Counted from the first letter of the stretch, positions 9,499 through 43,344 are shown. The stretch: 46,385 nucleotides of DNA from an uncultured Lentisphaeraceae bacterium (GCA_964400635.1 CAYNVE010000001.1:1-46385), one strand, 5' to 3'. Numbers and translations are program-made. The notes: a model not told the origin generated them from the letters alone.

Positions 9499-10869
9499 TT
9501 AGATACCCTGCGCAACCATCGCGTCGGCGACCTTCGTGAAGCCCGCAATGTTCGCGCCCATCACATAGTTGCCCTTATGTCCGTACTTCGCTGCCGCCTC
9601 AAAGGCGTTGTCGTGAATGGCCGTCATGATGCCGTGAAGCTTCTCATCGACCTCCTTCGCGCTCCAAGAGAGACGCTCGGAGTTCTGGGACATCTCAAGA
9701 CCCGACGTCGCAACGCCGCCCGCGTTCGCGGCCTTGCCCGGGGCGAAGAGGATCTTCGCGGCGAGGAACGCCTCGATTGCGTCAGGCGTGGACGGCATGT
9801 TCGCGCCTTCGGCGACGAGCTTGCAGCCGTGCTTGAGCAGGTAGGCCGCGTCTGCGCCGTTGAGTTCGTTCTGGCGCGCGCACGGGAAGGCGCAGTCGAC
9901 CTTGTCGACGATCTGCCACGAGTTGACACCCTTGACGAACTTCGCGCCCTTGATCTCCTTGGCGACATCGGCGAGCTCGCCGCGCGTGACGGTCTTGAGG
10001 AACATGACCTTCTCGAGATCCTTCTGCGAGAGGCCTGCCTTCACGTAGATCGCGCCCGAGCGGTCGGAGAGGGTGATCACCTTCGCGCCGAGCGAGATGA
10101 GCTTCTGCGCGGCGTACGTCGCGACATTGCCCGAACCCGAGATCGCGCAGAGTTTGCCCTTGAGGTTCTGCTTCTTCGTCGCGAGCATGTTTTCGGCGAA
10201 GTAGACGCAGCCGTAGCCCGTTGCCTCGGGGCGGATGAGCGAGCCACCGAAGGAGAGACCCTTGCCCGTCAACACGCCCGTCCACTCGTTGCGGATCTTG
10301 CGGTACTGACCGAAGAGGTAGCCGATCTCGCGGCCGCCGACATTCATGTCGCCCGCGGGGACGTCGGTGTCAGGGCCGATGTGGCGGTAGAGTTCCGTCA
10401 TGAAGCTCTGGCAGAAGCGCATGACCTCGCCGTCGCTGCAACGCTGACCCGGCGTGTGGGGGCTCTGCTTCGGGTTAAAGTCGGAGCCGCCCTTGCCGCC
10501 GCCCATCGGCAGGGTCGTGAGCGAGTTCTTGAAGATCTGCTCAAAGCCGAGGAACTTGAGAACGGAGAGGTTGACCGTCGGGTCAAAGCGGAGACCGCCC
10601 TTGAACGGACCAATCGCCGAGTTGAACTGGATGCGGTAGCCGCGGTTGACGCGGACGATGCCCTTGTCGTCGACCCACGGGACGCGGAACATGATGACGC
10701 GCTCAGGCTCGACGATGCGCTCCAGAATCGCGTTCTTCTCATATTCGGGGTGCGCGTCCACGACCGGCGCGAGCGTCGTGAGGACTTCTTCGGCCGCCTG
10801 GAGGAACTCCGGCTGGTCGGCGTTTTTCTTCTTGAGGTCTTTGACGACCGTATCGATGTATTTGCTCAC
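9499..10869 (-). CDS. gdhA: NADP-specific glutamate dehydrogenase
   Basis: LPMGGGKGGSDFNPK catalytic Lys region, GEVMRFCQSFMTELYRHIG, GSGNVA dinucleotide motif. 456 aa. Confidence 0.95.
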   Translation of the reverse strand: MSKYIDTVVKDLKKKNADQPEFLQAAEEVLTTLAPVVDAHPEYEKNAILERIVEPERVIMFRVPWVDDKGIVRVNRGYRIQFNSAIGPFKGGLRFDPTVNLSVLKFLGFEQIFKNSLTTLPMGGGKGGSDFNPKQSPHTPGQRCSDGEVMRFCQSFMTELYRHIGPDTDVPAGDMNVGGREIGYLFGQYRKIRNEWTGVLTGKGLSFGGSLIRPEATGYGCVYFAENMLATKKQNLKGKLCAISGSGNVATYAAQKLISLGAKVITLSDRSGAIYVKAGLSQKDLEKVMFLKTVTRGELADVAKEIKGAKFVKGVNSWQIVDKVDCAFPCARQNELNGADAAYLLKHGCKLVAEGANMPSTPDAIEAFLAAKILFAPGKAANAGGVATSGLEMSQNSERLSWSAKEVDEKLHGIMTAIHDNAFEAAAKYGHKGNYVMGANIAGFTKVADAMVAQGI

Positions 10870-10922
10870 TTCTGTCTCCTTGATTTTCGTTTCTGTGTAA
10901 AAGCACGAAGCGTATTGCAGAT

Positions 10923-10931
10923 ATTATAGCA
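10923..10931 (-). promoter_or_regulatory. extended -10 promoter (TGCTATAAT on minus strand) for gdhA
   Basis: Plus-strand attatagca is the reverse complement of TGCTATAAT. About 50 nt upstream of the gdhA ATG, with SD aaggagac. Confidence 0.6.
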
Positions 10932-24020: not shown

Positions 24021-24758
24021 ATGAACAAGCAGAAAAGCGGCTTTACGCTCGTCGAACTTCTCGTCGTCATCGGCATTCTCGGCATCTTGATGGGTGCTCT
24101 CTTTCCGGCGATTTCCACCGCCATGCTTTCGGCGCAGACGAATGCGCTCTCGATGCACGGTCGCAACCTCTTTATCGGTATCACCCAGGCGAACGTCGAC
24201 CGCGAGAGCCACGGCCGCGAGTCGGTCTGGCCGAAGAACAACAGCGACACGGCGGGCGGCACGGGCGACGACATCGCCGACAAGAAGTATTCCTCCGATG
24301 CCGACTCCTACTTCGAGGATCTCTTCGACATGGACAACTACGGTACGACGGAATGGAGCCCGTTCGTTGATGTTGACATCAAGTTCCTTTCGGGCGCGGG
24401 CGTTCCGGCCTACAAGGGCAACAAGTCGCTGAAGGGCTGCATTGCGTGGAAGATTGTCACCGACCTGACCGACGATATGCCCGACGTCATCCCGGTTCTC
24501 GTTTCGCGCAACCTCTCGACCGACACGTTCGCGAAGAGCTCCACGCTTGACACGCTCTCGCAGACGACGCAGGTTAAGCAGGACAGCTCTTACACGCAGC
24601 CCTTCGGCAAGAAGGCCTCCGTCGTCATCCACAAGGGCGGCGCGGCGAGCGTCTACAAGGGTCGCTACCAGTCGCTCGCGGATATCTACGACAAGCAGAC
24701 GGTGACGTTCTCCGACAACGCGCAGATTGACTACCTCAAGCCGTCGACCTCGAAGTAA
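24021..24758 (+). CDS. prepilin-type N-terminal cleavage/methylation domain protein (type II secretion/type IV pilin-like pseudopilin)
   Basis: MNKQKSGFTLVELLVVIGILGIL: class III signal peptide with G/F cleavage site and Glu+5. Start ATG 24021, not the track's 23838. Confidence 0.88.
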   Translation: MNKQKSGFTLVELLVVIGILGILMGALFPAISTAMLSAQTNALSMHGRNLFIGITQANVDRESHGRESVWPKNNSDTAGGTGDDIADKKYSSDADSYFEDLFDMDNYGTTEWSPFVDVDIKFLSGAGVPAYKGNKSLKGCIAWKIVTDLTDDMPDVIPVLVSRNLSTDTFAKSSTLDTLSQTTQVKQDSSYTQPFGKKASVVIHKGGAASVYKGRYQSLADIYDKQTVTFSDNAQIDYLKPSTSK

Positions 24759-27044
24759 GTGCGCGTCCAAGTCGCCATCGACCTCGCGCTCGACCGGCTC
24801 TTCACCTACGAAGTGCCCGAGGCGCTCAAAGAGAAGCTGGCTGTCGGCCAGCTTCTTTCCGTTCCGTTCGGTCATCGCGAGGCGCGGGGCTTCGCGGTGG
24901 CGGTGTCGCCCGCTTCGGCGGGCGGGGGGCTGACGGCGCAGCCCCCTGCAAAACCCTTGCTGACGGCGCAGCCCCCTGCAAAACCCTTAAAGATTAAGCC
25001 CGTCACGGCGATTGTTGACGAGACACCGTTCTTCTCAGCCACGCTCTTGGAACTCGTGCGACGTGTCGCCGCTTACACGGCCTCGCCTGTCGAGTCGGTC
25101 TTAAAGGCTGCGCTTCCCGCTGCCGTCTTGAAGAAGAACGCGCACGCCAAGGAGCAGCTCTTCGTTGAGGTCGCCGCGCCGCAAGACGGGGCGAAAACAC
25201 CCGCGCCGTCGCCCGCCGCGCCGCCGCTCACAAAACGCCAGGCGTGGCTTATTGAGAACATTGCGCGCCTCGGCGGCGGCTGGATGACGGGGCTGTGTCG
25301 CGAGCTCAAGACGACACCCGCCTCGTTGCGCCAACTCGCCGTTTTGGGCCACCTTGCAATCGCGCCGCGCGCGCGCCGCCGAGATCCGCTCGCCGCCCAT
25401 CGCATCTTGCCGACGAAGCCGCTCGCCCTCAACGACGAGCAGAAGACTGCGCTCGACGCGATTGTCGCGTCGGCAGAAAAGAAGCCGCACCTCCTCTTTG
25501 GTGTCACGGGTTCAGGCAAGACAGAAGTCTACCTTCAAGCAATCGCGCACGAACTTGAACAGGGGCGCGGCGCGATCGTGATGGTTCCCGAGATTGCCTT
25601 GACGCCGCAGACCGTCCAACGCTTTGCCTCGCGCTTTGGCGACAAGGTGGCCGTTCTCCACTCCGCGCTCTCGGACGGCGAGCGCTATGACGAGTGGCAT
25701 CGCATCCGCGCGGGCGTGGCGCGCGTCGTCGTCGGCCCGCGCTCAGCCGTCTGGGCCCCCGTTCGCAATCTCGGTCTTATCGTCGTCGATGAGGAGCACG
25801 AGGGCAGTTACAAGCAGGACGAGATGCCGCGCTACAACGCGCGCGATGTCGCCGTTTTGCGCGGCGCGACGGAAGGCGCGAAGGTCGTTCTGGGTAGTGC
25901 GACGCCCGCGCTCGAGACGTGGCACAACGTTGAGAAGGGGAAGTATCGCCTCCTCACGCTCGCACATCGCGCGGGGCATGGCTCGCTACCGCAGGTCCAC
26001 CTCGTCTCGCGCGGTCTCGAGGGCGCGATTTTTTCGCGTGAGCTTTTGGACGCAATCGCCGTTCGCCTCGAACGCCACGAGCAGACGATTCTCTTCCTAA
26101 ACCGTCGTGGCTACTCGCGCCAGGTCGTTTGCGAGGTGTGCGAGAATGTGATTTCGTGCCCCAACTGTTCGTCGATGGATCGCGCGATGCCCTACACCTA
26201 CCACCGCGCTGACCAGTGCTTGCGTTGCCATGTCTGCGGCGGGTGGATTCCGATTCCCCCAAAGTGCCCCGTGTGCGGCTCTCCGCGCCTCGCCTATCGC
26301 GGCATTGGCACACAGCGCGCCGAGGCCGCGCTCCTCAAGTGCTTCAAATCGGCGCGCGTTCTGCGCATGGATGCCGACTCGACGAGCCGTCGCCATTCGC
26401 ATGACGAGATTCTCGGCGTCTTTCGGCGCGGCGAGGCCGACATTCTTATCGGCACACAGATGATTGCGAAGGGGCTCGACTTTCCGAATGTGACGCTCGT
26501 CGGCGTTCTCAACGCCGACTCGTCGCTCTCAATGCCCGACTTCCGCGCGACCGAGCGAACGTATCAACTTCTCTCGCAGGTCGCAGGCCGCGCGGGCCGC
26601 GCCGAGCTCCCAGGCGAAGTCTTCATTCAGACGAACGACCCCGAGAACGCCGTCTTCCGCCTCGCCGCGCGCGGTGACTACGCATCGTTCGCGGCATCAG
26701 AGTTGAAGGAGCGCGCAAGCCTCTTTTACCCGCCGTTCTCGCATCTCGCAATCGTCTCGTTCATCGGAAAGTCGATGGGGCTTGTTTCCTCGTGGGCCGA
26801 GATGTATTCGTCGTCGCTCAAGAATTACGCCGCGTCGGCCGCGCGAAAGGGCGAGAAGATCGTCGTGAGCGACGCGCTTCCGAGCGCGCTCGAAAAGGCG
26901 GACGGTCTCTTTCGCTGGCAAGTCGTCATGCGTGCCGCGTCGAGCGCGGCGATTGTGCGCGCGTGGCGCTGGATTGTATCCGTCCGAAAGCCGCCCGCCA
27001 CATTAAGAATCTCGCTTGACGTGGACGCTCTCAATTTAGTATAA
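24759..27044 (+). CDS. priA: primosomal protein N' (replication restart helicase PriA)
   Basis: GVTGSGKTEVY Walker A, VVDEEHEGSYK, Cys-rich zinc region CEVCENVISCPNCS...CHVCG...CPVCGS. GTG start abuts the upstream TAA. Confidence 0.95.
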   Translation: MRVQVAIDLALDRLFTYEVPEALKEKLAVGQLLSVPFGHREARGFAVAVSPASAGGGLTAQPPAKPLLTAQPPAKPLKIKPVTAIVDETPFFSATLLELVRRVAAYTASPVESVLKAALPAAVLKKNAHAKEQLFVEVAAPQDGAKTPAPSPAAPPLTKRQAWLIENIARLGGGWMTGLCRELKTTPASLRQLAVLGHLAIAPRARRRDPLAAHRILPTKPLALNDEQKTALDAIVASAEKKPHLLFGVTGSGKTEVYLQAIAHELEQGRGAIVMVPEIALTPQTVQRFASRFGDKVAVLHSALSDGERYDEWHRIRAGVARVVVGPRSAVWAPVRNLGLIVVDEEHEGSYKQDEMPRYNARDVAVLRGATEGAKVVLGSATPALETWHNVEKGKYRLLTLAHRAGHGSLPQVHLVSRGLEGAIFSRELLDAIAVRLERHEQTILFLNRRGYSRQVVCEVCENVISCPNCSSMDRAMPYTYHRADQCLRCHVCGGWIPIPPKCPVCGSPRLAYRGIGTQRAEAALLKCFKSARVLRMDADSTSRRHSHDEILGVFRRGEADILIGTQMIAKGLDFPNVTLVGVLNADSSLSMPDFRATERTYQLLSQVAGRAGRAELPGEVFIQTNDPENAVFRLAARGDYASFAASELKERASLFYPPFSHLAIVSFIGKSMGLVSSWAEMYSSSLKNYAASAARKGEKIVVSDALPSALEKADGLFRWQVVMRAASSAAIVRAWRWIVSVRKPPATLRISLDVDALNLV
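24929..24988 (+). repeat. perfect 2 x 30-bp in-frame tandem duplication inside priA
   Basis: gctgacggcgcagccccctgcaaaaccctt occurs at 24929-24958 and again at 24959-24988, encoding LTAQPPAKPL twice. Confidence 0.95.
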
Positions 27045-27045
27045 T
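27016..27045 (+). promoter_or_regulatory. near-consensus sigma70 promoter TTGACG-18-TATAAT
   Basis: -35 at 27016-27021, -10 at 27040-27045. The priA stop TAA (27042-27044) lies inside the -10 hexamer. A 34-nt leader with SD aggag precedes ATG 27080. Confidence 0.7.
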
Positions 27046-27079: not shown

Positions 27080-27805
27080 ATGAAAATCTCATCCATTGTT
27101 TCGTTCTTCGCATGTGCGCTTACGGCGGCGAATCTCTTCGCTGACGCGGCCAATGTCTTGATTACTTTTTCGACGCCCGGCCCTGATAAGTATCAGGATG
27201 ACGTGGCGGTGAAAGATGGTGAATACTACGCGCTCGTCTGGACGGCGGGTGAGGATTTTGCGGGCTTCACGACAGCGGGCGAGGCGGCCAATGCCGATCA
27301 GAAGGTCATTTACAAGAGCCCGCTCGCGAAGGACGGTCGTTGCCCATTCACGTGCTTCCAGATTGACTCGGCGAAGGCGCCCGAGGGCGGTGTCTATTCG
27401 GTCTATCTTCTCGATACGCGCGGGAGCACCGAGAATCAGATGATCGTGACGGGTTCTGTCGAGGCGAAGACCTACGCTGCGTCCACCGCGACGGCGAAGA
27501 TTGCGACCGTCCAGACTGACGCGACGAAGGCGGCCGATGGTTCAACCGTCGCGCTCAAGGCCACGACGGCGGGTCTCGTTGATGTGAACGGCCTCGCTGC
27601 ACCGAAGATTACGGGCTTCAAGCTTGTCGGTAGCGAGGTGAAGATCACCGTCGCGAACGTCATGCCGGGCTTCGCCTACGAAGTGAAGGGTGGCCTCGAC
27701 AAGACGGGCGATGTCACCTCAACGGTTGTTGAGAAGGGTGACTCGACGATTGAAATGACGGTGAACAAAGACGCCGCGCAGTTCTTCTCGATCAAGGTGA
27801 AATAA
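27080..27805 (+). CDS. secreted protein of unknown function (241 aa)
   Basis: Signal peptide MKISSIVSFFACALTAANLFA/DA and a good SD. Ala/Thr-rich central linker. C-terminal beta-rich module ending QFFSIKVK. No family recognised. Confidence 0.75.
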   Translation: MKISSIVSFFACALTAANLFADAANVLITFSTPGPDKYQDDVAVKDGEYYALVWTAGEDFAGFTTAGEAANADQKVIYKSPLAKDGRCPFTCFQIDSAKAPEGGVYSVYLLDTRGSTENQMIVTGSVEAKTYAASTATAKIATVQTDATKAADGSTVALKATTAGLVDVNGLAAPKITGFKLVGSEVKITVANVMPGFAYEVKGGLDKTGDVTSTVVEKGDSTIEMTVNKDAAQFFSIKVK

Positions 27806-27823: not shown

Positions 27824-28594
27824 ATGAATCGTCTTCTTGCTCTTGCTTGCGCTCTTTCGCTCGCTTCCTCGCTTTCCGCCGCGACGACCACGGTCGAGAG
27901 CGGTAACACGCTCGGCTTCCTCCGCGTTGAGATTGGTACAAGCGCCGAGGCACTCATTGCGATTCCGTGGCTCGGCGTTGCGACGACCGACACAGATATC
28001 AAGGTGACGGATGTCGTCAAGACGGCGAACCTGACGGCTGGCGATCAGTTGTTCTACTATGATACGACCTCCAAGAAGTATCAGGTTTGGCAACTTAACG
28101 AATCGAAGGAATGGGTTGCGGCATCGACCGTGACATCAGATGCGATGCAGACGGCGGGCGAGGTGACGAAGACCTTGGCGCGTGGCAACGCGCTTCTCCT
28201 GAAGCGTACCAAGACGGAAGAAACTTCTGTTTATCTCTACGGTCAGGTTGCGACCTCGACGGATGCGATCACGACCACGATGGCGCAGGGCACTTCTGAG
28301 ACGCCGGCCTACACGCTTCTTGCGCCGCCTTCCGTTGAAGATACCGACCTCAACACGGGCGCGACCTGGGCGAACGTCAATAATGGCGATATGATTGTTC
28401 TTGCGAACTCCAAGGTTCTCATCTATCGCGATAACAAGTGGGGTCAGAAAACATTTGATAAGGATTCAAACACCGAAACAATGGTCACGACGGATGCGAA
28501 GATTACGGCGGGACAGGGCGCGTGGTATGTGAGCGCGAAGGGCGCAACGACTGCGGCGACCGTGACGTGGCAGGCACCTGCCAATAATGAATAA
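27824..28594 (+). CDS. secreted protein of unknown function (256 aa), Thr-rich
   Basis: Signal peptide MNRLLALACALSLASSLSA/ATTT, SD gggagg. Thr/Ser-rich stretches (ATSTDAITTTMAQGTSETP). No family recognised. Confidence 0.75.
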   Translation: MNRLLALACALSLASSLSAATTTVESGNTLGFLRVEIGTSAEALIAIPWLGVATTDTDIKVTDVVKTANLTAGDQLFYYDTTSKKYQVWQLNESKEWVAASTVTSDAMQTAGEVTKTLARGNALLLKRTKTEETSVYLYGQVATSTDAITTTMAQGTSETPAYTLLAPPSVEDTDLNTGATWANVNNGDMIVLANSKVLIYRDNKWGQKTFDKDSNTETMVTTDAKITAGQGAWYVSAKGATTAATVTWQAPANNE

Positions 28595-28627: not shown

Positions 28628-29092
28628 GTGAAACGTATTCTTGTTCTTTCTGCCTCAATCCTCGCGGCGTCATTTGCGAACGCCTCGTATCTGTGGTGGC
28701 AGGTTGATACGACTGACTATTCATCGACGATTTCAGGCACGGTGAATCAGTATACCCTTTGGGCGGTGAATGGTTCGAGTTCGGCAACCATGATTGATGG
28801 AACGAATAAGGCCGGTGCGGCGAATTCAGTTGACATTTCTGCCTATTCAACTGGCTATTCGTTTTATGTTGAACTTGCAAACTTTGAGTCTGCCAATAAC
28901 GTGACAACGGTTGCGAAGAGCGGAACGGTGACCTACAGCGATCTTTCTTCGCATATTGTTACAACCCTCTCGGACGTTCCTAGCGTCACTCCTTGGCATG
29001 CATCTAACTATGAGTCCGTCCCTGAGCCGACGACGGGCCTTATGCTTCTCCTCGGCCTCTCGCTCGTTTCGCTCAAGCGTCGCAAAGTCTAA
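28628..29092 (+). CDS. small PEP-CTERM sorting-domain protein (154 aa)
   Basis: GTG start 9 nt after SD aaggag. Signal peptide VKRILVLSASILAASFANA. C-terminus VPEPTTGLMLLLGLSLVSLKRRKV is a PEP motif plus TM helix plus basic tail. Visibly lower GC than its surroundings. Confidence 0.8.
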   Translation: MKRILVLSASILAASFANASYLWWQVDTTDYSSTISGTVNQYTLWAVNGSSSATMIDGTNKAGAANSVDISAYSTGYSFYVELANFESANNVTTVAKSGTVTYSDLSSHIVTTLSDVPSVTPWHASNYESVPEPTTGLMLLLGLSLVSLKRRKV

Positions 29093-29095
29093 AGA

Positions 29096-31543
29096 ATGAA
29101 GAACGAGACTCTTCCGAAAGAGGACATCGCTCAGGCCGAACGAATCGGACTGGGCGATTTAGTCATTGCCGGCTCTCTGGCCATCTTCACCTTCATCTTC
29201 TCAATCGTTTTCGCGATTCCGGGGCTTCACCCGACGCTTTGGGAAGACGCGTCGGTTGCCGCCTCCATTCGACCTTCTGCGAACATCCTGACGGGTCTTT
29301 GGACTTTTCTCGCCTCGTTCGTCTACTCCATTTTCGGCATCGGCTTCGGCTCGTCCGTCCTGCGCCTCATGGGGCATCTCTCGCTCGCGTTCCTCGTCAT
29401 CCTCGGCTATGTGATCTTGCGCGAACTCCTTTTCTTCACGACGTTCGCGCGCGCGCGTCGCTCCTTTAGGCGCGTCTGCGTCATGCGCTTCGCGGCGGCA
29501 ATCGGCATCATCTTCTTCGTTTTCTCTGAGCCGGTCTGGATGGCATTCCAGTGCTTCTCGCCGACGGCCATCACGATTGGTCTTCTGCTCGGCGCGCTCG
29601 AGCTCTTTTTTGCCTTCCTCCGCAAGGGGGCGATCTGCCTCGCGTATTGCGCGGCCGCGCTCCTCGGGCTTCTCGCCGCTTCGACCGCGATGGGCTTCAT
29701 CCTCGCGGCCGTCCTCGTCGGCGTCATGATCTTCGTCTACAGGGCCTCGCCCACCTTCGCCTCGCCGCTCTTTCGCGCGTCGGTCTTCGAGGTGAGCAAG
29801 TGGCATATGACCTTCCTCTTTATCGTGGCGTTCGTTCTCGGCGTTACGTTGAACGTCTGGTGCTTCATCGCGCACAACGGTGTCCAAGCGCTCGGTCAGT
29901 CGTTCGGCGACGTGCCGATGATTTACATCCACACCTACTTTAACGCCTTCAAGTCGGCCGCCGATCCCCTCGGCTGGATTGTCTTCTTGAGCCTTTGCGT
30001 CGTCCCATTCGTGATCGCGTGCGTGCGCTTCACCACGAGCGTCGATGAGGAGCGTTTCTTGCCTTACTCGTCGGGGCTCGTTTATCTCGTTTGCGGTCTT
30101 CTCGCGCTCACGCAGGCCTCGTTCATCCCCGTCTTCCTCTTCTGGACGCACTTCAACATCGCTTCGCCGACATTGCTCGCGATGGGGCTCTTCTGCCTCG
30201 CCGCGACGGCCGCGATGTCAGCGGCGGTGCTCGGCGTGGACTCGCTCTGCCGCAACCATGCCTCAATTGAGTCGTTGATGAGCCCCGATGATGAGGATGA
30301 CGAGAGCCATGACGACCGAGATGCCGACCGCCTTGATGAGGTGGTCACCACCGACATCGAAGGGCGGACGCTCACGCGCTCGGCGATCTTCCTGCGCGTC
30401 TTCGTCTTCTTTCTCGTGCCGCTCGTCGCGCTTGCGCTCGTGATCCCGGGCGGCGTCAGGAAGGCGACGCGCGAGATGATGAAGGCGATTGACGACTTTG
30501 TCGAGGAGGTTGTTCGCGAGGCGCACGACAAGAAGATTCTCTTCACGGACGGAAACCTCGACGCCGCCATCGAACTGGCCGCGCGCGACAAGGGTTCGAA
30601 CCTCACCTGCTACTCGCTCATGGGTGGCGCGGGCGCGCGTGGACGCTACCTGCGCACGCGCGATCTTAAGGATGGTGAAGATCTCTTCTCGTTCCGCTTC
30701 GACACGGCAACAGGTCTTCGGTCGTGGATTCGCGACAAGCCCGAGCGTCTCGCCGACACGGCCGCGCTCATGGGCTTTGACCTCTGGAAGCGCGATGGGC
30801 GGCCTCTGCCGCCGATGGGTGGCGTTCTCTCGCGCCCAGCGGGCTTCCGTAACGAGGCGGAGCGCGCGGATGGCGTCAAGCGCGCCTACGACCTCGCGCG
30901 CCGTATGATTGCGGTCAACGCCTACGCGAAGGGTATCAAGGCCTGCACCGACCGTGACATTTCGCGCGCCTTCTACGCGGCGCAGTGGCGTCTCGCGCGG
31001 ATGTGCCTCTATCGCGGTGAAGTTGATGACGCGCACGGTCTCGCGGACGAGGCGATTTTAGAGGGCATCCTCGCTAAACAACTGAACGACTGCAACAAGA
31101 CGTATCAGGATCTCGTCGCTTCGATGGAGAAGCGTCAGTCGTTCATGATGCAGGCTCTGACTCCGCGCGAGGGTCTGCAGCTCGCGCTCGTGCGCGCCGA
31201 TTTCACGATGGGCAAGATCTACGCCGAGACGATTCTTTCGGCCGACCCTGACAATCCCGACGCGAACTTCGCGATGGGCATGTACTACCAACGCCTTCGC
31301 CAGCTTTCTCTCGCCGAGCGTTATCTCGTGCGCACGCTCCTGAGAAAGCCGAACGAGCCGGCCGTCTACAACAACCTCGCGATGATTCAGATCGAACTTA
31401 AAAAATACGACGCGGCGCGGACGAACATTGAGAAGGCGCTGAAGATCATCCCCGACGCGGCGGCCGTCCTCGATACGAAGCGTCGACTTGAGGCGGCGGT
31501 CGAGCGTCAGGCGCACGGCGCGGAGAAGAAGACGGCGAAGTAG
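29096..31543 (+). CDS. 815-aa polytopic membrane protein with acidic linker and C-terminal TPR repeats (possible GT-C-fold glycosyltransferase-like architecture)
   Basis: About 10-11 hydrophobic helices in the first ~380 aa, then the acidic run SPDDEDDESHDDRDADRLDE and one more TM helix. The soluble region ends with TPR-like repeats (YNNLAMIQIELKKYDAARTNIEKALKIIPD). The function call is inference only. Confidence 0.7.
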   Translation: MKNETLPKEDIAQAERIGLGDLVIAGSLAIFTFIFSIVFAIPGLHPTLWEDASVAASIRPSANILTGLWTFLASFVYSIFGIGFGSSVLRLMGHLSLAFLVILGYVILRELLFFTTFARARRSFRRVCVMRFAAAIGIIFFVFSEPVWMAFQCFSPTAITIGLLLGALELFFAFLRKGAICLAYCAAALLGLLAASTAMGFILAAVLVGVMIFVYRASPTFASPLFRASVFEVSKWHMTFLFIVAFVLGVTLNVWCFIAHNGVQALGQSFGDVPMIYIHTYFNAFKSAADPLGWIVFLSLCVVPFVIACVRFTTSVDEERFLPYSSGLVYLVCGLLALTQASFIPVFLFWTHFNIASPTLLAMGLFCLAATAAMSAAVLGVDSLCRNHASIESLMSPDDEDDESHDDRDADRLDEVVTTDIEGRTLTRSAIFLRVFVFFLVPLVALALVIPGGVRKATREMMKAIDDFVEEVVREAHDKKILFTDGNLDAAIELAARDKGSNLTCYSLMGGAGARGRYLRTRDLKDGEDLFSFRFDTATGLRSWIRDKPERLADTAALMGFDLWKRDGRPLPPMGGVLSRPAGFRNEAERADGVKRAYDLARRMIAVNAYAKGIKACTDRDISRAFYAAQWRLARMCLYRGEVDDAHGLADEAILEGILAKQLNDCNKTYQDLVASMEKRQSFMMQALTPREGLQLALVRADFTMGKIYAETILSADPDNPDANFAMGMYYQRLRQLSLAERYLVRTLLRKPNEPAVYNNLAMIQIELKKYDAARTNIEKALKIIPDAAAVLDTKRRLEAAVERQAHGAEKKTAK

Positions 31544-31549
31544 GGTTTT

Positions 31550-32308
31550 ATGCCGATCGCGATTCGCCTCTTCTCGTCTGTCGGTGGCGTGGGTCTTCTT
31601 CTCATCCGCGCGGTCGGCTTTTTTCCGCACGTCGTCTTGAACGCAGACGCGCGGCGCGATCTCTTCCGCCAGCTCTACGCGACGGGCATTCGCACGCTGC
31701 CCGTCGTCACGGTCGTCTCGCTCTTCATGGGAATGATCCTCGCGTTGCAGGTGGGCGTTGAGCTCGCGCGCTTCAACCAAGAGTCGTTTCTCGGCGCGGC
31801 GGTGATGCTCACGCTCTTGCGTGAAATGGCGGCTTTTTGCTGCGGCATCTGTCTCTCGGCCTGCGTCGGCTCGGCCGTCGCAGCGGAGTTGGGGACAATG
31901 ACCGTCAACGAAGAAATTGACGCCCTACGCGTGATGGGCGTCTCGCCCGTCCGCTTTCTCGTCGCGCCGCGCGTCCTTGCGCTCGTTTTGATGGCGCCCG
32001 TCGTCGCGTTCTATAGCGCGATGATCGGCACGCTCGGCGGCGGGCTCGTCGCGATGACGCAACTCGCCGTTGATTTCTCGCAGTATGTCTCGAGCGCGCT
32101 TTGGATGGCGACGCGCCACGACCTCATGCTCGGTCTTTTTAAATCGGCCGTCTTCGGTCTTCTCATCGGGACAATTTCGTCCTGGGAGGGTCTTCAAACA
32201 TCGCATGGCGCGACGGGTGTCGGCAAGGCAACGCAACGTTCGGTGATCGTCTCGTTCTTGGCGATTCTCATCTCGGGTTACATGATGACGCGGGTCTTCT
32301 GCGAATAA
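31550..32308 (+). CDS. mlaE: MlaE-family ABC transporter permease
   Basis: ~250 aa, 5-6 TM helices. Motifs GIRTLPVV, LREMAA..., EEIDALRVMG typical of MlaE/TGD1/YrbE permeases. Confidence 0.88.
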   Translation: MPIAIRLFSSVGGVGLLLIRAVGFFPHVVLNADARRDLFRQLYATGIRTLPVVTVVSLFMGMILALQVGVELARFNQESFLGAAVMLTLLREMAAFCCGICLSACVGSAVAAELGTMTVNEEIDALRVMGVSPVRFLVAPRVLALVLMAPVVAFYSAMIGTLGGGLVAMTQLAVDFSQYVSSALWMATRHDLMLGLFKSAVFGLLIGTISSWEGLQTSHGATGVGKATQRSVIVSFLAILISGYMMTRVFCE

Positions 32309-32323
32309 AAGGGAGAAGGGACT

Positions 32324-33025
32324 TTGGAGTCGGTCGTCGAGTTTCGGAATGTGAAGAAGGCCTTTGGCGAGAAGGTCGTCTTAGACGGCGTCTCTTTCAC
32401 GGTCGAGAAGGGCGAGGTGCTTGCCGTCGTCGGGCCTTCGGGGACGGGTAAGTCCGTCACGCTCAAGCACATCGCGGGGCTTCTCGCCCCCGATGCGGGC
32501 GAAGTGAGAACGGCGACGGATCGCATCGGCTATCTCTTCCAGTCGGGCGCGCTTCTCGCGTGGATGACGCTTGCGGAGAATGTCGCGTTGCCACTCCGCG
32601 AGACAACGCGCCTCAAAGAGGACGAGATCGACCGCCGCGTCACGGAGGCTCTGTCGGCTGTCGGCCTTCTCGACTCGGCCGACCTCTATCCCGCCGAGGT
32701 CTCGGGCGGCATGCAGAAGCGTGCCGGGCTTGCGCGCGCCATCGTGCGCGAGGCGGATCTCGTCCTCTACGACGAACCGACATCGGGGCTTGACCCCGTC
32801 ACCTCCATGCGCATCGTCTCGCTCATCGATTCGATTCACTCATCGCGCCATGTCACGTCGGTTCTCGTCACGCACGATCTCGCCTCGGTCTTGAAGATTG
32901 CTGATCGCATTCTCATGCTTAAAAACGCGCGCGTCGTCGCGTGCCTCACGCCCGACGAATTCGTCCGCTCGGCGGATCCGGACGTCGCCGAATATGTTGC
33001 CGCCGCCAGGGGGAAAATCTCATGA
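32324..33025 (+). CDS. mlaF: MlaF-type ABC transporter ATP-binding protein
   Basis: GPSGTGKS Walker A, LFQSGALL Q-loop, VSGGMQKRAGLARA signature, LVLYDEPTSGLDP Walker B, THD H-loop. TTG start after SD gggagaaggga. Confidence 0.88.
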   Translation: MESVVEFRNVKKAFGEKVVLDGVSFTVEKGEVLAVVGPSGTGKSVTLKHIAGLLAPDAGEVRTATDRIGYLFQSGALLAWMTLAENVALPLRETTRLKEDEIDRRVTEALSAVGLLDSADLYPAEVSGGMQKRAGLARAIVREADLVLYDEPTSGLDPVTSMRIVSLIDSIHSSRHVTSVLVTHDLASVLKIADRILMLKNARVVACLTPDEFVRSADPDVAEYVAAARGKIS

Positions 33026-34017
33026 AACGGAAAAACGAAACATTCTCGCAAGCCGTCGTCGGCCTCTTCATGGTCGTCGTTCTGTTGCTTCTTGCTTACT
33101 TCACGATCGTCATCTCGGGGGTCGATGTTCTCGCCGGGAGAAATCGTGTGCCGATTCGAATCTCGTTCACGCACGTGGGCGGACTTAAGGCGCGCGACAA
33201 CGTCATGTATCGCGGCACGAAGGTCGGCGCGGTCGATCACGTCGAGGTGACGGCGACGAACCTCGTCGTCGTCGCGCTCATCGATGACCACGTCGTCCTG
33301 CGCCAAGGCGCGCGCGCGCGCGTCGCAACGCTCTCAATGCTCGGCGGCTACTACTTGAATCTCGACGAGGGGACGGGCGAGGTGATGAACTTAAAGGAGG
33401 CCTTCATCGTCGGCGAAAAGCCGATTGACTGGATGGACGATGTCTCGAAGATCGCGCGCAATTTGAACGAGCTCACCTCGCGCGCCGAGGTCGAGACGGT
33501 CGTCACGAACTTCGCCATCATGTCCGAGAAGATGCGCGAGATTTCGACGAAGGCCGCCGAAATCATGGCGCGCATTGAGCGCGGCGAGGGGACGGTCGGG
33601 CGACTCCTCTCGTCGGACGAGACACTCTACCACGACCTCCGCCATGTCGTCGCAACGACCTCGAACGCGATGGCGCGCGCCGACCGCGCCTTCGACGGCA
33701 TCGCGACGATTGCCGACAGTTTGCGCGACGAGAAGACGCTTGAGGACATGAAGGCGGGCATCGCGGCGTTCCGCAAGGCGGCCGAGAGTCTCAACGCAGG
33801 CGAGTTCGTTGCGAGCGCAAAGACGCTCGTTGACAACTTGAACGAGATTTCCGCACGCATCAAGTCGGGCGAGGGCACACTTGGAAAACTGGCGAATGAC
33901 CCCGCCGTTTACGACGAGTTGAACGGGCTTCTGCGTGACGCGCGGCAGGTGCTCGACAACTACCGCGACACGACGCCGATCACGACCTTCTCGTCGCTCG
34001 CGACGGGCGCGCTTTAA
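33022..34017 (+). CDS. mlaD: MlaD/MCE-family substrate-binding protein, long form (331 aa)
   Basis: N-terminal TM anchor, MCE domain (GGLKARDNVMYRGTKVGAV). Long helical C-terminus with two GEGT(V/L)G(R/K)L motifs. ATGA overlap with mlaF. Start ATG 33022, not 32941. Confidence 0.85.
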   Translation: MKRKNETFSQAVVGLFMVVVLLLLAYFTIVISGVDVLAGRNRVPIRISFTHVGGLKARDNVMYRGTKVGAVDHVEVTATNLVVVALIDDHVVLRQGARARVATLSMLGGYYLNLDEGTGEVMNLKEAFIVGEKPIDWMDDVSKIARNLNELTSRAEVETVVTNFAIMSEKMREISTKAAEIMARIERGEGTVGRLLSSDETLYHDLRHVVATTSNAMARADRAFDGIATIADSLRDEKTLEDMKAGIAAFRKAAESLNAGEFVASAKTLVDNLNEISARIKSGEGTLGKLANDPAVYDELNGLLRDARQVLDNYRDTTPITTFSSLATGAL

Positions 34018-34021
34018 GGCG

Positions 34022-35407
34022 ATGACTTTCTTTCTCGCCGCCTCGCTCTTCTTGACGAACCCGTTCCCGCTCGACATGCCGCGGGCGAGTTCGTTTCTCA
34101 TTCAAGAGCACGGTGTCTCGCGTCTCGAAGACCGCTTCTCAAAAGTGGATCTCTGGGTCTCAAAGTCGGTTGACGGAAGGTGGATGGATGAGGCGGGGCG
34201 CGTCTTTATGCTCGCCCACCTCGCGACTCGGCCGCCGCGCGCAGACGATGACACGACATTGACGCGCGTTGATTTTCTATCAAGTGAGGACAAGATCGAT
34301 CGTCGCGACGAGAAGGCGGCGCGCGAGGCCATTCAGGCACTTTCGCCCATTGAGATCGCCGACGAGCCCGAGAAGCCGCGCCATCGGCTGCGCGGTTTTC
34401 GCGAGATTGAGTATTGGCAGGGGACGAACGAGAGCGCGGTCGTTTGCGCGTATCGTCTTGAGAAGGAGGAGATCTCGCGTCTCGCTGTCTGGGTGCTCGC
34501 CGAGGGCGACAAGATCGACGAGGCCGTCCGCCGCTTCGAGGAGAAGTTTCTAGAAACGGATGACGCGCGATTCTCGCTTCCGAAGGCGACGGCGGAGCAC
34601 GAGAAGTCGAACGAACGCGCCCTCCAGAAGGCGGATGTCGCGCATTCCGTCGCCGCGTACGATTTGTGGCACGTGACGGACGGCGACGACTGGGTCCTCT
34701 TGGATGCACTTTCGGGCGACCGCGATTTTGTAACCACGCTCACGAACGAGCTTTTTCTCATGCGCAAGGCGTATGCGGCGGCTGTGCCGACGTCGCTCAA
34801 TCTCTCGAACACGCTCTCCGTCCTGCGCATCTACGCATCGCGCGCGGACTATCTCGACGCGCTTTCGCTCGCGGGGCTTGATGAGATGACATGGAGCGCG
34901 GCGTATTGGAGCCCGATGCGGCGCGAGCTCGTCGCCTACTTGCCGTCGGACGGCGAGGAAAAACTGCTTGAGACGATTCGCCACGAGGCGTGGCACCAGT
35001 ATCTTTCGTATGCGTCGTCGTTCCTCGGCGTCTCGCCGTGGCTCAACGAGGGCTACGCGCAGTATTTTGAGGGCGGCGCGGACGGGCCCGCTACATTTGA
35101 GCGACTTGACTTCGCGCTCTTTGCCGACCTCGTTGAGCCGCTTCTTAAGATGGACTACGCGGCGTTCTACGCGGGGAGCGATGAGGATCGGCTTCTTAAA
35201 TACCGCCTCGCGTTTTCGCTCGTCTACTTCCTTGAGAAGGGCGCGCCGAAGGTTCGTTTCGAGCCGTTCAAGAATCTCAAGAAGGACTACTTCAACGCGC
35301 TTCTTGAGACGCGCGATATGCTTCGCGCGACCGAGGCGACATTTAAGGACGAGGCGTTCCGCAAAAAGTTCGTATCCGAATGGAAGACGTTCTGGGAGAA
35401 CCTTTAG
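34022..35407 (+). CDS. HExxH-motif protein (putative zinc metallopeptidase-like, DUF1570-like)
   Basis: Weak N-terminal hydrophobic segment MTFFLAASLFL. IRHEAWHQY (HEAWH at 34982-34996) followed by NEGYAQYFEG is a gluzincin-like arrangement. Start ATG 34022 rather than 33935. Confidence 0.6.
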   Translation: MTFFLAASLFLTNPFPLDMPRASSFLIQEHGVSRLEDRFSKVDLWVSKSVDGRWMDEAGRVFMLAHLATRPPRADDDTTLTRVDFLSSEDKIDRRDEKAAREAIQALSPIEIADEPEKPRHRLRGFREIEYWQGTNESAVVCAYRLEKEEISRLAVWVLAEGDKIDEAVRRFEEKFLETDDARFSLPKATAEHEKSNERALQKADVAHSVAAYDLWHVTDGDDWVLLDALSGDRDFVTTLTNELFLMRKAYAAAVPTSLNLSNTLSVLRIYASRADYLDALSLAGLDEMTWSAAYWSPMRRELVAYLPSDGEEKLLETIRHEAWHQYLSYASSFLGVSPWLNEGYAQYFEGGADGPATFERLDFALFADLVEPLLKMDYAAFYAGSDEDRLLKYRLAFSLVYFLEKGAPKVRFEPFKNLKKDYFNALLETRDMLRATEATFKDEAFRKKFVSEWKTFWENL

Positions 35408-40020: not shown

Positions 40021-41744
40021 ACGAAGAAGAATCGTCAACAAGCCGGCATTTTCTCCGGCAATGGATTGAAAAGGACGTCGCCGAGGGGCGCACGGGCGGC
40101 AAGGTCGTCACGCGCTTCCCGCCCGAGCCCAATGGCTACATTCACATCGGCCACGCCAAGGCCGTTTGCGTGGACTTCGGCATGGCCGAACTTTTCGGTG
40201 GCGAGTGCCACCTGCGCCTCGACGATACGAACCCGACGAAAGAGTCGGACGAGTATGCCGAGAACATCAAGCGCGATATCCGTTGGCTCGGTTTTCAGTG
40301 GCAGGGCGAGGGCGACGCGCTCGAGCGGGGTTTCTACAACGCCTCGAACATGTTCGACACGATGTATGCGATCGCCGAGGAATTGATCCGCCGCGGCCAG
40401 GCCTACTGTTGTAATCTGACGCAAGAGGAATGGAAGGCCTATCGCGGCGTCCCCGAGAAGCCCGGCACGCCCTCGCCCTCGCGCGATACCGATCCTGAGC
40501 GCAATCTCAAAATCTTCCACGAGATGCGCGACGGCAAGTATGCGGATGGCGAATGGTGCCTTCGCGCGAAGATTGATATGGCCTCGCCGAACATCCACTT
40601 CCGCGATCCCGTCCTCTATCGCATCCGCCATGTCTCGCACTACCACCTCGGCGACACGTGGTGCATTTATCCGATGTACGACTTCGCGCATCCGATCGAG
40701 GACGCGCTTGAAGGTGTTACACACTCAATGTGCACGCTTGAGTTTGAAGTGCATCGTCCGCTCTACGATTGGGTCGTCGATCGCATGGACGAGCAGGGTC
40801 TTTTGCCGGTTCGCAACGGTGTCAAGATTCGCACACAGCAGCGCGAGTTTGCGCGCCTCAACTTGACCTACACCGTTATGTCGAAGCGTCTCCTTCTCCA
40901 GATGGTGCAGGAAAAGCGCGTGAGCGGCTGGGACGATCCGCGCATGCCGACCGTGTGCGGGATGCGCCGTCGCGGCTACACGCCGGGCGCGATTCGCGAG
41001 TTCTGTGAGCGTATTGGTGTCTCGAAGGTCGAGAGTGAGAGCGATCCTGCGCTCCTTGAGTGGTGCGTGCGCGAGGAGCTCAATCAAACGGCGGCGCGCC
41101 GCATGGCGGTTCTTGACCCCGTGAAAGTCGTGATCGACAACTGGTCGGGCGCGGCACGCGATGTTGAGCTTCCCAACAACCCGCTCGACGAGAAGGCGGG
41201 TGTCCGCACGATTCCGTTCGGGCGCGAGATCTGGATCGACCGCGCCGACTTCATGGAAGTGCCCGAGAAGAAGTTCTTCCGCATGGCACCGGGGCAAGAG
41301 GTTCGCCTGCGCGGCGCGTGCATTTTTAAGTGCACGGGTTGCGAGAAGGACTCGGAGGGCCGCGTCGTCGAGATCCACGGCACGTGGGACGAGAACTCGT
41401 GGGGCGGCAACGCGGCGGACGGTCGCAAGGTGAAGGGGACGATCCACTGGGTTGACTGCGCGAGCGGACTCAAGGCCGAGGTGCGCGTCTACGACCGTCT
41501 CTTCACCGAGAAGGATCCGCTTAAAGACGGCAGCGAGAACTTCCTCAAATACCTGAACGCCGACTCTCTCCACGTCCTCTCGGCTTATGTTGAGCCGACG
41601 CTGGGGCGCGCGACGGCGGGCGAGCATTTCCAGTTCGAGCGCACGGGCTACTTCGTCGCCGACGAAAAGGACTTTGCTCAAGGTCGCCTCGTCTTCAATC
41701 GGACGTGCGCGCTTAAAGACTCGTACAAGCCCGCCGCGACGTGA
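40017..41744 (+). CDS. glnS: glutaminyl-tRNA synthetase
   Basis: TRFPPEPNGYIHIGHAKA (HIGH), DDTNP, LTYTVMSKR (KMSK). GTG start in a GTGA overlap with the GH2 stop. Confidence 0.95.
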   Translation: MNEEESSTSRHFLRQWIEKDVAEGRTGGKVVTRFPPEPNGYIHIGHAKAVCVDFGMAELFGGECHLRLDDTNPTKESDEYAENIKRDIRWLGFQWQGEGDALERGFYNASNMFDTMYAIAEELIRRGQAYCCNLTQEEWKAYRGVPEKPGTPSPSRDTDPERNLKIFHEMRDGKYADGEWCLRAKIDMASPNIHFRDPVLYRIRHVSHYHLGDTWCIYPMYDFAHPIEDALEGVTHSMCTLEFEVHRPLYDWVVDRMDEQGLLPVRNGVKIRTQQREFARLNLTYTVMSKRLLLQMVQEKRVSGWDDPRMPTVCGMRRRGYTPGAIREFCERIGVSKVESESDPALLEWCVREELNQTAARRMAVLDPVKVVIDNWSGAARDVELPNNPLDEKAGVRTIPFGREIWIDRADFMEVPEKKFFRMAPGQEVRLRGACIFKCTGCEKDSEGRVVEIHGTWDENSWGGNAADGRKVKGTIHWVDCASGLKAEVRVYDRLFTEKDPLKDGSENFLKYLNADSLHVLSAYVEPTLGRATAGEHFQFERTGYFVADEKDFAQGRLVFNRTCALKDSYKPAAT

Positions 41745-42340
41745 AGCCGTCCGTCGCCCTTGTCGCGCCGTATGCGGCGTGGATGGCTCTGATGAGCCTC
41801 CTCCCGCAGACGGCCCTTGCGTATGCTCTTCGCGGGGCGGTGACGGCGGCTCTTCTCGTCTTTTCGTTTTGCGTCTTGCGAGCGCGTGTGCGCTTGAATC
41901 CGCGTGCGCTTCTTTTTGGTTTCTCGGGCGGGCTGATTGTTTTCGTTCTTTGGACGGCTCCCGAAATGTTCGTCTGGCCGCAGGGCGAGGCGAATCCTTC
42001 GCCTTTCGCGCCAGAGGTCTGCGGTTGGTCGCTCACGATTGTAAAACTCGTCGCGAGCGCGTTCGTGATCTCTGTTGCGGAGGAACTTTTCTTCCGCAAG
42101 TGGCTTCTCGACTTTGCGGGCTTTGGGTGGATGCTCGTTCTCTTTGGCGTTGAGCATATGCGCTTTGATCTCGGCCTTGCTGGGGGCCTTGTTTTTGTTG
42201 TGGAGGGCATCCTCGCGGGTTACATCTACGGCCTTCTCGCGAAGCGCGTGGGGCTTCTTGCGGCCATCCTCGCGCACGCCGTCACGAACCTTCTTCTGGG
42301 CCTCGATGTCATTCTCTTGGACAAGTGGTTCTACTGGTAG
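41741..42340 (+). CDS. CPBP-family (CAAX/Abi) intramembrane glutamic endopeptidase
   Basis: VAEELFFRKWL (EExxxR) and ILAHAVTNLLLG (HxxxN) motifs in a 6-TM protein. GTGA overlap with glnS. Confidence 0.8.
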   Translation: MKPSVALVAPYAAWMALMSLLPQTALAYALRGAVTAALLVFSFCVLRARVRLNPRALLFGFSGGLIVFVLWTAPEMFVWPQGEANPSPFAPEVCGWSLTIVKLVASAFVISVAEELFFRKWLLDFAGFGWMLVLFGVEHMRFDLGLAGGLVFVVEGILAGYIYGLLAKRVGLLAAILAHAVTNLLLGLDVILLDKWFYW

Positions 42341-42420: not shown

Positions 42421-43344
42421 GTGATTATCGCCGCGTTCATCTTTTTTGCCCTCACGCGCGCGGAGATCGTCGAGCGCATGCGTGCGCCCGTCCTGACGCA
42501 GGCGGACGGGCTCGTGCGCGTCTTCGCGGACTGCCCCGAGGATATGCGCCGCGAGTATCAAGGCCCCATCGCCTCGTATGCGACCCAGGTGGCCCACCGC
42601 CTTTATGCGGCCGCGAAGATGAAGGAGCGTCACTTCGAAAGCCCGCCGATTATCGTCCACATCGGCGACGCGCGAACGAACATCGCCACGGTTGTCACGC
42701 GCCTTTCGACAAACGACGGCGCGGTTGTCACGCGCCTCTACTTGAAGAGCCCGGGTGGCGCGGATTTAAATGCCTTTGAGGTCGAACTCGCTCGCGCCTT
42801 CTACCGCGCCGTCCACGCGCGCGAGATTTCGCCGCGCGAGGCGCGCGACATTCTCGACGCGGCCGACCCCGCGAAGCGGAACGCGCTTTCGCGCGCGCGG
42901 CTTGAGGCGTTTCTCCGAGGCGATCGCGCGGAGCAAGGCGCGACGAGCGACGAGGACTGGGACGAAGCGCATCTCACGCTCCTTCGAAAGGTCATTGAGG
43001 TGGGCGTTGCGACGAAGCGCGACGTCCTGACATTTGCCTCGCGTCTCTACCTCTACCCCCCGCATTTTTCGGAGCCGTTTGAAGGCGGGGCCCGTTCGCT
43101 GTCGTTTCGCGAGGCCATCGCGCGCGCGCCGCGCGACAGGCGCATCCCGCTTCTCGCGCAGCGGAAGGCGGCCGAGGTCGCGCTCTTTGGTGGCGGTCGG
43201 AGCACCGAACTCGCGCTCGCCGCGTTCGCCTATCGTCGCTTTTTGGAAGACCTCGCCGCGCGCGAGGCGACGGCAGAAGATTTGGAAAAGAAACTGAACG
43301 AGGCCGATCGGCTTTTGCAGACGGCCTGGGAGAAGGCAAAATGA
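42421..43344 (+). CDS. hypothetical protein (307 aa) with N-terminal hydrophobic anchor
   Basis: GTG start. VIIAAFIFFAL anchor, then an Ala/Arg-rich helical protein with no motif I recognise. Coding status is supported by the ATGA overlap with argH and codon bias like its neighbours. Confidence 0.55.
   Translation: MIIAAFIFFALTRAEIVERMRAPVLTQADGLVRVFADCPEDMRREYQGPIASYATQVAHRLYAAAKMKERHFESPPIIVHIGDARTNIATVVTRLSTNDGAVVTRLYLKSPGGADLNAFEVELARAFYRAVHAREISPREARDILDAADPAKRNALSRARLEAFLRGDRAEQGATSDEDWDEAHLTLLRKVIEVGVATKRDVLTFASRLYLYPPHFSEPFEGGARSLSFREAIARAPRDRRIPLLAQRKAAEVALFGGGRSTELALAAFAYRRFLEDLAAREATAEDLEKKLNEADRLLQTAWEKAK

Follow-up and report, generated by a model that had tools for sequence, protein, structure and literature searches.

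A TMEM260-like putative protein O-glycosyltransferase and its conserved cassette of secreted and PEP-CTERM proteins in gut and rumen Kiritimatiellia

The human protein TMEM260 was recognised in 2023 as a protein-specific O-mannosyltransferase, and bacterial relatives were mentioned at that time only as 'distant homologs in bacteria' (PMC10214176); a description of its structure followed in 2026. It consists of 11 transmembrane (TM) helices (residues 24-415), a Rossmann-like domain in the lumen of the endoplasmic reticulum (416-564), and a tetratricopeptide repeat (TPR) domain (565-706) (bioRxiv 10.64898/2026.03.17.711096; PMC10214176). In the first luminal loop, D52 and H67 position the donor; the Rossmann-like domain supplies the catalytic base, D441, and the TPR domain an asparagine ladder by which the extended acceptor peptide is held (bioRxiv 10.64898/2026.03.17.711096). 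Here we describe T815, an 815-residue protein encoded in a stretch of 46,385 nucleotides from an uncultured Lentisphaeraceae bacterium (GCA_964400635.1, CAYNVE010000001.1, positions 1-46385; this whole stretch is called the window below), together with the genes A, B, and C for three secreted proteins directly upstream of it. The best reading of T815 is that of a divergent bacterial protein, so far without annotation, related to a known type, the TMEM260-type GT-C protein O-glycosyltransferases. In the literature searched, we found no functional study of bacterial TMEM260-like proteins, no link between them and PEP-CTERM proteins, and no earlier description of a conserved client cassette.

GT-C proteins have in common a polytopic membrane core, made of a conserved module (TM helices 1-7) and a variable one, and a long first extracytoplasmic loop in which short helices and a conserved acid are found. 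Several other groups of GT-C enzymes are relevant for the comparison. TMTC1-4 (GT105) and PMT/POMT (GT39, including the actinobacterial Pmt) are protein O-mannosyltransferases that use a lipid-phosphate sugar at the non-cytoplasmic side of the membrane; the TMTCs end in luminal TPRs and are not known to have a Rossmann-like domain between these and the membrane part. The acceptor of ArnT (GT83) is lipid A, and that of STT3/PglB (GT66) is an asparagine in a sequon. In Pseudomonas aeruginosa, the gene of the GT-C glycosyltransferase TfpW directly follows a group IV pilin gene, whose product TfpW O-glycosylates. This arrangement, with the enzyme gene placed after the gene of its secreted client, has the same logic as the one proposed here for T815; TfpW itself belongs to an arabinosyltransferase-like GT-C family, serves one pilin substrate, and is not known to contain TPRs or a Rossmann-like domain or to involve a PEP-CTERM protein.

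The T815 gene and its parts are as follows; conservation here and below was counted over 90 representatives of the family at 25-40% identity.

29096-31543, plus strand: T815, an 815-residue GT-C fold, TMEM260-like putative protein O-glycosyltransferase (open reading frame, homologues, AlphaFold2 model, Foldseek, Pfam signal)
29150-30454, plus strand: transmembrane GT-C domain of 11 TM helices, residues 19-453, N-terminus predicted to be cytoplasmic (AlphaFold2, hydropathy, positive-inside count, Foldseek)
29219-29254, plus strand: motif of the predicted first periplasmic loop, PGLHPTLWEDAS, residues 42-53 (conservation counts)
29528-29539, plus strand: motif of the predicted second periplasmic loop, E145-P-V-W148, with the family consensus D-P-V-W (position 145 acidic in 63 of 90)
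30281-30340, plus strand: acidic stretch SPDDEDDESHDDRDADRLDE, residues 396-415, in the disordered, predicted cytoplasmic loop between TM10 and TM11 (AlphaFold2, topology, comparison)
30455-30940, plus strand: predicted periplasmic alpha/beta (Rossmann-like) domain, residues 454-615 (AlphaFold2 secondary structure)
30548-30562, plus strand: D485-G486-x-x-D489, right after strand 1 (residues 481-484), the most conserved motif of the family
30953-31540, plus strand: predicted periplasmic helical/TPR domain, residues 620-815, with about three canonical TPRs and a capping helix (TPR matches)

Judged by its relatives, T815 is certainly a genuine, conserved gene, because it has 72 full-length homologues with E-values of 1e-109 or lower, all from gut or rumen metagenome bins of Kiritimatiellia, and because an exhaustive hidden Markov model search with residues 1-615 yielded 374 clusters at 50% identity, which is far beyond chance. 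The best 150 of these 374 clusters all have one layout of about 780 residues. The T815 sequence is present in DNA metagenome runs, RNA runs being listed by the species label alone. Long minus-strand open reading frames of 316, 257, 240, and 174 amino acids overlap T815 at window positions 29201-31780 and are probably shadow frames of this high-GC gene.

The fold of T815 was predicted by AlphaFold2 (AF2). The full-length model, built on 45 homologues, has a mean predicted local distance difference test score (pLDDT) of 84.3 and a predicted TM-score (pTM) of 0.74, and a second model, covering residues 1-615, has values of 83.9 and 0.83, respectively. Both runs yield the same helices, and the only disordered regions are the N-terminal 13 residues and the acidic loop (pLDDT below 50). 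In the Foldseek comparison of the 1-615 model with the Protein Data Bank (PDB), ranks 1-24 were occupied exclusively by chains of the GT-C fold, namely STT3 of the human and yeast oligosaccharyltransferases, ArnT, ALG9, ALG12, AftB, EmbA/EmbB, PIG-U, and Pmt1/2/4. The lowest E-value was that of STT3 (1.9e-4) and the highest TM-score that of ArnT (5f15, 0.45/0.50). PIG-U was represented by 7wld_U (E-value 0.038) and 8imx_U, and the Pmt matches covered the core only (about 280-460 columns, E-values 0.17-0.8). Below rank 24 the Foldseek probability was less than 0.25, except for further Pmt4 and Emb chains, and the first match outside the GT-C class was a G-protein-coupled receptor at a probability of 0.21. 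The full-length model retrieved TPR proteins, STT3, and ALG9. Since the top of the list is exclusively GT-C, we consider this comparison of models decisive for placing the predicted membrane core of T815 in the GT-C fold class. An earlier note on this DNA, made from the sequence alone, had proposed a GT-C resemblance, which is thus borne out, and had named a transporter or an O-antigen polymerase as the competing outcome, to neither of which a confident match was found in Pfam, NCBIfam, or Foldseek.

Among the described enzymes, ArnT and STT3/PglB are the best structural neighbours, with a GT-C core and a periplasmic or luminal active site, but they have no sequence similarity to T815, carry other soluble domains, and lack TPRs. 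TMTC1-4 and PMT/POMT likewise share the GT-C fold, Pmt1, Pmt2, and Pmt4 being structural matches, whereas T815 has neither the Pfam signal of PMT, PMT_2, or DUF1736 nor a MIR domain.

Hydropathy and the AF2 model both give 10 TM helices, the acidic loop, an 11th TM helix (residues 428-453), and a soluble part of 362 residues. This agrees with the 10-11 hydrophobic helices counted initially; the soluble part does end in TPRs that score above the Pfam cut-offs, although it is shorter than the approximately 380 residues first estimated. Lysine and arginine make up 12 of the 87 loop residues at the cytoplasmic side and 3 of the 114 at the outer side, as delimited by the AF2 helices, and the family means are 10.2 inside and 4.0 outside. 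Because of this positive-inside asymmetry, the first extracytoplasmic loop (EL1) with its W49-E50-D51 motif (the WED loop) is predicted to be periplasmic, as are the alpha/beta domain and the TPRs, and the N-terminus and the acidic loop are predicted to be cytoplasmic. A periplasmic WED loop and periplasmic soluble domains are what a GT-C enzyme requires, and the extracytoplasmic position initially ascribed to this loop agrees with the count. EL1 spans residues 39-90, with AF2 helices at 46-55 and 67-90, in keeping with the first loop of GT-C proteins, although its acid is not invariant. The alpha/beta domain, which is classed as Rossmann-like only by the order of its predicted secondary-structure elements, has strands at 481-484, 504-507, and 555-557 and two short ones. 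The strongly acidic linker, to which the earlier note drew attention, is present and followed by one TM helix as described there, but it is lineage-specific: its net charge of -12 in T815 compares with averages of -3.9 for close relatives and -0.7 for the wider family, where its length ranges from 5 to 64 residues. Given this variation of charge and length, it was rejected as a defining or functional hallmark.

In sequence searches of Pfam, NCBIfam, and the PDB, T815 is recognised by its TPR tail alone. The TPR matches at residues ~710-790 exceed the Pfam cut-offs (TPR_2, 33.8 bits versus 27; also TPR_17, TPR_8, and TPR_1), and PDB sequence searches with T815 and two family profiles returned TPR proteins or nothing. 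The TPR region also matches the PrsT model weakly (39 bits versus a cut-off of 312 bits); this is generic TPR similarity, because PrsT is a soluble TPR lipoprotein without a membrane GT-C domain. For the membrane part, a signal is found in the relatives. The family PF11028 (TMEM260-like, formerly DUF2723; profile length 179, gathering score 24.2 bits) was searched for in 23 close members, truncated and scanned one by one, and in 61 more distant representatives. It is matched by 12 of the 23 close relatives at sub-threshold scores of 9-17 bits, and no other non-TPR Pfam family recurs among them. Six of the 61 distant relatives also match it, the best with an E-value of 5.6e-6, or about 27 bits as extrapolated from bit/E pairs, which is above the cut-off. 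In the close relatives, the matches are collinear and leave little of the model uncovered (profile positions 23-175 of 179, aligned with protein residues ~74-220). Since such collinear matches recur among its relatives, the T815 family is likely homologous to the TMEM260-like proteins. By the curated criterion T815 is not a member of PF11028, as its score stays below the gathering threshold. A profile search for annotated DUF2723 proteins with a TM-only alignment of distant members, in which the word index limits the candidates, returned two fragments of the T815 family only.

The most conserved positions of T815 fall on the periplasmic side. In the alpha/beta domain, D485 and D489 are each kept in 89 of the 90 representatives, G486 in 87, and E475 in 83; in the first loop, the corresponding counts are 84 for P46, 77 for W49, 79 for R59, and 81 for P60. 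Four asparagines of the TPR region, N667, N724, N759, and N760, are retained in 80-88 representatives. The acidic pair in the first loop, initially singled out as the possible catalytic motif, exists in T815 as E50-D51, but the family does not keep the two acids together: residue 50 varies, and position 51 is D or E in 36 of 45 close and 71 of 90 distant relatives. An acid at either position is found in 80 of 90.

These features can be set beside those of TMEM260, which is specific for IPT domains. The 11-TM GT-C part, the Rossmann-like domain, and the TPRs follow each other in the same order and at near-equal sizes. The acid of the first outer loop has a near-equal number (D51 in T815, D52 in TMEM260), as does that of the TM3-TM4 loop (E145 and E144), a conserved aspartate stands early in the alpha/beta domain (D485/D489 and D441), and asparagines are conserved in the TPR domain of both. 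By analogy, D51 is a candidate counterpart of the donor-positioning D52, the catalytic base likely resides in the alpha/beta domain (D485/D489) and not in the WED loop, and the four TPR asparagines could form a peptide-binding 'asparagine ladder'. On the other hand, T815 is bacterial and periplasmic, scores below the PF11028 threshold, has an additional variable cytoplasmic loop between TM10 and TM11, and has a TPR/helical region of 196 residues versus 142 in TMEM260. Its donor would be an undecaprenyl-type carrier, and its presumed clients, whose genes belong to the operon of T815, have no recognisable IPT domains.

One further motif, GVDSLCRNH at the cytoplasmic end of TM10 (residues 380-388, positions 30233-30259), is near-invariant in close relatives only. 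Its C385-R-N-H388 part was considered as an exosortase-like Cys/Arg/His site and rejected, as it is cytoplasmic and in the wider family the Cys is kept in 31 of 90 and the His in 19 of 90.

The genes upstream of T815 and their features are the following.

27016-27045, plus strand: sigma-70-like promoter match TTGACG-18-TATAAT, 11 of 12 positions (a consensus match only, promoters of Kiritimatiellia being uncharacterised)
27080-27805, plus strand: gene A, 241-residue secreted protein with a signal peptide ending in FADA; orthologues occupy this place at 33 of 45 species' loci
27824-28594, plus strand: gene B, 256-residue secreted protein with a signal-peptide-like N-terminus, family mean about 19% Ser+Thr
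28628-29092, plus strand: gene C, 154-residue secreted protein with a signal peptide and a PEP-CTERM tail
29015-29086, plus strand: PEP-CTERM sorting signal of C, residues 130-153 (PF07589, TIGR02595)

The gaps between A, B, C, and T815 are 18, 33, and 3 nucleotides, so that the start codon of T815 lies 3 nucleotides past the stop of gene C. Gene order was compared by profile searches of 45 loci, one per species. The order A-B-C-T815 is complete in 33 of the 45, and six further loci, cut by a contig end, are consistent with it. The linkage is kept at about 25% identity: locus L051 has the order A-C-B-T815, and in L052 and L004 a giant protein with the B domain is followed by C and T815. Even in the most divergent loci, a PEP-CTERM gene is either adjacent to T815 or one gene away. 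The genes A, B, C, and T815 are a conserved four-gene cassette, not chance neighbours, and its core consists of the enzyme, a B domain, and C with its PEP-CTERM signal, because these are what the divergent loci L051, L052, and L004 all retain. The connection between T815 and the neighbouring secreted proteins, which the earlier note had put forward, is strengthened by this conserved order. The promoter-like match overlaps the last codons of priA, 35 nucleotides before gene A; judged by its sequence, it is a possible promoter of the cassette.

The outer flanks of the cassette vary by locus and comprise, for instance, priA and a prepilin-like gene upstream and mlaEFD downstream. In the window, the lipid-transport operon mlaE-mlaF-mlaD (31550-34017) starts 6 nucleotides past the T815 stop, and this adjacency is kept in the nearest relatives only. 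Functional coupling of T815 to mlaEFD or priA was considered and rejected, the synteny being lost in most loci. Five cassette-bearing contigs (L007, L008, L009, L038, and L041) are filed in metagenome-assembled genomes labelled Faecalibacterium prausnitzii, Alistipes onderdonkii, Methanomethylophilaceae archaeon, Lachnospiraceae, and Clostridiales. In addition, mlaEFD is present in L007-L009, with 74-85% identity of MlaE/MlaF, and all five contigs are probably mis-binned.

All three upstream proteins, initially described as exported, have signal-peptide-like N-termini and the Thr/Ser/Ala-rich stretches noted at that time. Their expected association with the PEP-CTERM class holds for the 154-residue protein C but not for A and B, which show no PEP-CTERM signal and no consistent Pfam family. 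Protein A has a conserved N-terminal domain (FSTxGPDxYADG...LLDTR), followed by a variable Ser/Thr/Ala-rich linker (residues ~117-172) and a beta-rich C-terminal domain with only faint FN3 matches (E-value ~0.1). A search with the profile of B returned only stand-alone proteins of about 250 residues, none of them named. A PEP-CTERM signal is made up of a PEP motif, a hydrophobic helix, and a basic tail, and the genome is expected to encode an exosortase (EpsH/Xrt), often close by. Protein C matches PF07589 with 24.8 bits (cut-off 20.7) and TIGR02595 with 26.7 bits (cut-off 16). All 39 C orthologues listed carry such a signal, with five more loci having it by motif, and [A/S]YLYWQV is conserved directly after the signal peptide. 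The share of Ser/Thr is 20% in the linker of A, 30% in the variable segment of B, and 22% in the body of C. The cassette resembles the PEP-CTERM/exosortase systems in the bona fide signal of gene C, and differs from them in that A and B lack it and no exosortase or exopolysaccharide genes were found in the window.

In locus L004 (1-7353), the B domain is the C-terminal module of a giant protein of 2487 residues with FN3, DUF2341, and Gly_rich_2 matches, and in L052 (2-2188) it is that of a giant protein of at least 728 residues. In both cases the genes for a PEP-CTERM protein and for the enzyme come next, which points to B as a portable module that the system recognises. As a separate observation, the third-position GC content falls from 0.73 in A to 0.66 in B and 0.53 in C, versus 0.77-0.80 in priA, T815, mlaE, and mlaF. 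The deviant codon usage, especially that of C, may stem from a high expression level, from fast evolution, or from a separate acquisition.

With moderate confidence, we propose that T815 is a periplasmic protein O-glycosyltransferase that depends on a lipid-linked sugar and is dedicated to A, B, and/or C. The fold class and topology, the order of the domains, the conservation pattern, and the synteny are results of the analysis, and from them we infer the catalytic activity, the lipid-linked donor, the base residue, and the acceptors. A sugar linked to polyprenyl phosphate would be bound by the 11 TM helices at the periplasmic surface of the inner membrane, where the EL1 acid D51, together with P46, W49, and R59, would position it. 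The TPR asparagines would hold the peptide backbone of an extended segment of a newly exported client, and the alpha/beta domain would present a Ser/Thr hydroxyl of this client to the donor, with D485 or D489 as a general base. Its clients would most probably be A, B, or the PEP-CTERM protein C, alone or together, and the cassette probably serves to assemble a glycosylated structure of the cell surface, of which the products would be parts and which would be anchored via the PEP-CTERM pathway.

A number of observations weigh against this proposal. The membrane and alpha/beta parts of T815 match no NCBIfam model, and in the Pfam scan T815 itself has no PF11028 match at an E-value of 1 or below. 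The Foldseek E-values are moderate (1e-4 to 1e-2), with global TM-scores of 0.3-0.5, although such values are expected between GT-C families with differing soluble domains. A TMEM260 structure was not among the Foldseek matches of the T815 model, and the proposed equivalence of D485 and D441 is by position in the fold. Counterparts of the TMEM260 residues H67, R264/Y267, and R355 were not seen when the conserved columns were inspected by eye, without a TMEM260 alignment. Ten of the 90 relatives lack the EL1 acid. The Ser/Thr-rich stretches of the presumed clients are conserved in composition only, not in sequence. In five loci, the upstream sequence extends over at least 5.9 kb but contains no adjacent A, B, or C. 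Finally, neither a polyprenyl-phosphate sugar synthase nor an exosortase was found in the 46-kb window, the exosortase check covering the scanned open reading frames, which include nearly all long ones of the plus strand.

Alternatively, T815 could be an active GT-C glycosyltransferase with a non-protein acceptor, such as lipid A, the lipopolysaccharide core, or an exopolysaccharide, comparable to ArnT or the arabinosyltransferases, in which case the TPRs would only dock partner proteins and A, B, and C would be co-expressed envelope components. ArnT indeed gives the best TM-score, AftB and Emb are also matched, mlaEFD is directly downstream in the window and in the nearest relatives, and the PEP-CTERM systems were defined via their association with exopolysaccharide loci (PMC1569441). 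However, the mla linkage is lost in most loci but the one to A-B-C persists, the recurring Pfam signal is that of PF11028 and not of ArnT/PMT_2, and the Rossmann-like domain with Asn-bearing TPRs matches the protein-specific TMEM260, whose TPRs bind peptide; we regard this explanation as unlikely.

It is also conceivable that T815 is a non-catalytic GT-C scaffold similar to PIG-U, which binds a polyprenyl-linked glycan or lipid while its TPRs hold C, with A and B, for an exosortase encoded elsewhere, so that it would act as a chaperone or presenter and not as a transferase. PIG-U is among the fold matches, a PEP-CTERM protein is encoded beside T815 or at a distance of one gene also in the loci that diverge most, and the EL1 acid is absent from a tenth of the family (10 of 90). 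Nevertheless, catalytic GT-C enzymes match better than PIG-U, the near-invariant D485-G-x-x-D489 and the conserved EL1 residues resemble an active site, and no exosortase gene is linked in the window, which makes a scaffold role improbable. As a long shot, to which we give very little weight, T815 could belong to a so far unrecognised pathway of surface assembly, as the subunit of an exosortase machine that presents a lipid-linked glycan and holds the client, a role like that of PIG-U in the GPI transamidase. After cleavage, C would be attached to a glycan, either polyprenyl-linked or of the membrane, that T815 holds, and would then anchor the B-domain proteins, including the giant adhesin-like ones. 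This reading, should it hold, would reveal the acceptor chemistry of PEP-CTERM sorting, which has long been unknown.

It is scarcely credible that T815 is a polytopic protein of unrelated origin (a transporter, or an O-antigen polymerase or ligase) with a TPR tail and a GT-C likeness produced by the modelling: only TPR families pass the curated thresholds for T815 and a few relatives weakly match Wzy_C_2, but that match maps to the TPR tail (residues 718-768), outside the membrane domain, the Pfam scans of the family gave no Wzy_C match, two independent AF2 runs yield the same helices, and the 24 GT-C chains heading the Foldseek list, by which the transporter and the O-antigen polymerase were ruled out, are accompanied by no transporter, Wzy, or WaaL structure and by no Wzy, WaaL, SEDS, MFS, or ABC protein above a probability of 0.25.

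The remaining genes of the window are mostly housekeeping. Directly upstream of priA, a prepilin-type (N_methyl) protein is encoded at 24021-24758, and the synteny of the two genes extends to many relatives; positions 2963-3796 encode a prepilin peptidase (A24). The 490-residue protein encoded at 33935-35407, with an HEAWH (HExxH) motif and weak matches to DUF1570/Peptidase_MA_2, may be an uncharacterised metalloprotease. An intramembrane protease of the Rce1-like/CPBP type (41741-42340) is not an exosortase; according to a preprint, its family is reportedly linked to other C-terminal sorting signals. Three proteins, encoded at 9577-10929 (450 residues), 42421-43344 (307 residues), and 48-611 (187 residues), have no Pfam family at an E-value of 0.001 or below.

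The T815 family, whose catalytic part is named by no curated model, comprises 370 or more clusters at 50% identity. As the probable clients are encoded beside the enzyme, the cassette offers a compact four-gene system in which domain-specific O-glycosylation could be reconstituted and dissected, and allows the old prediction of glycosylated PEP-CTERM proteins to be put to a concrete test. In the gut and rumen, Kiritimatiellia are common degraders of glycans, and a conserved glycosylated surface structure could matter for their adhesion and for their interaction with the host or with phages.

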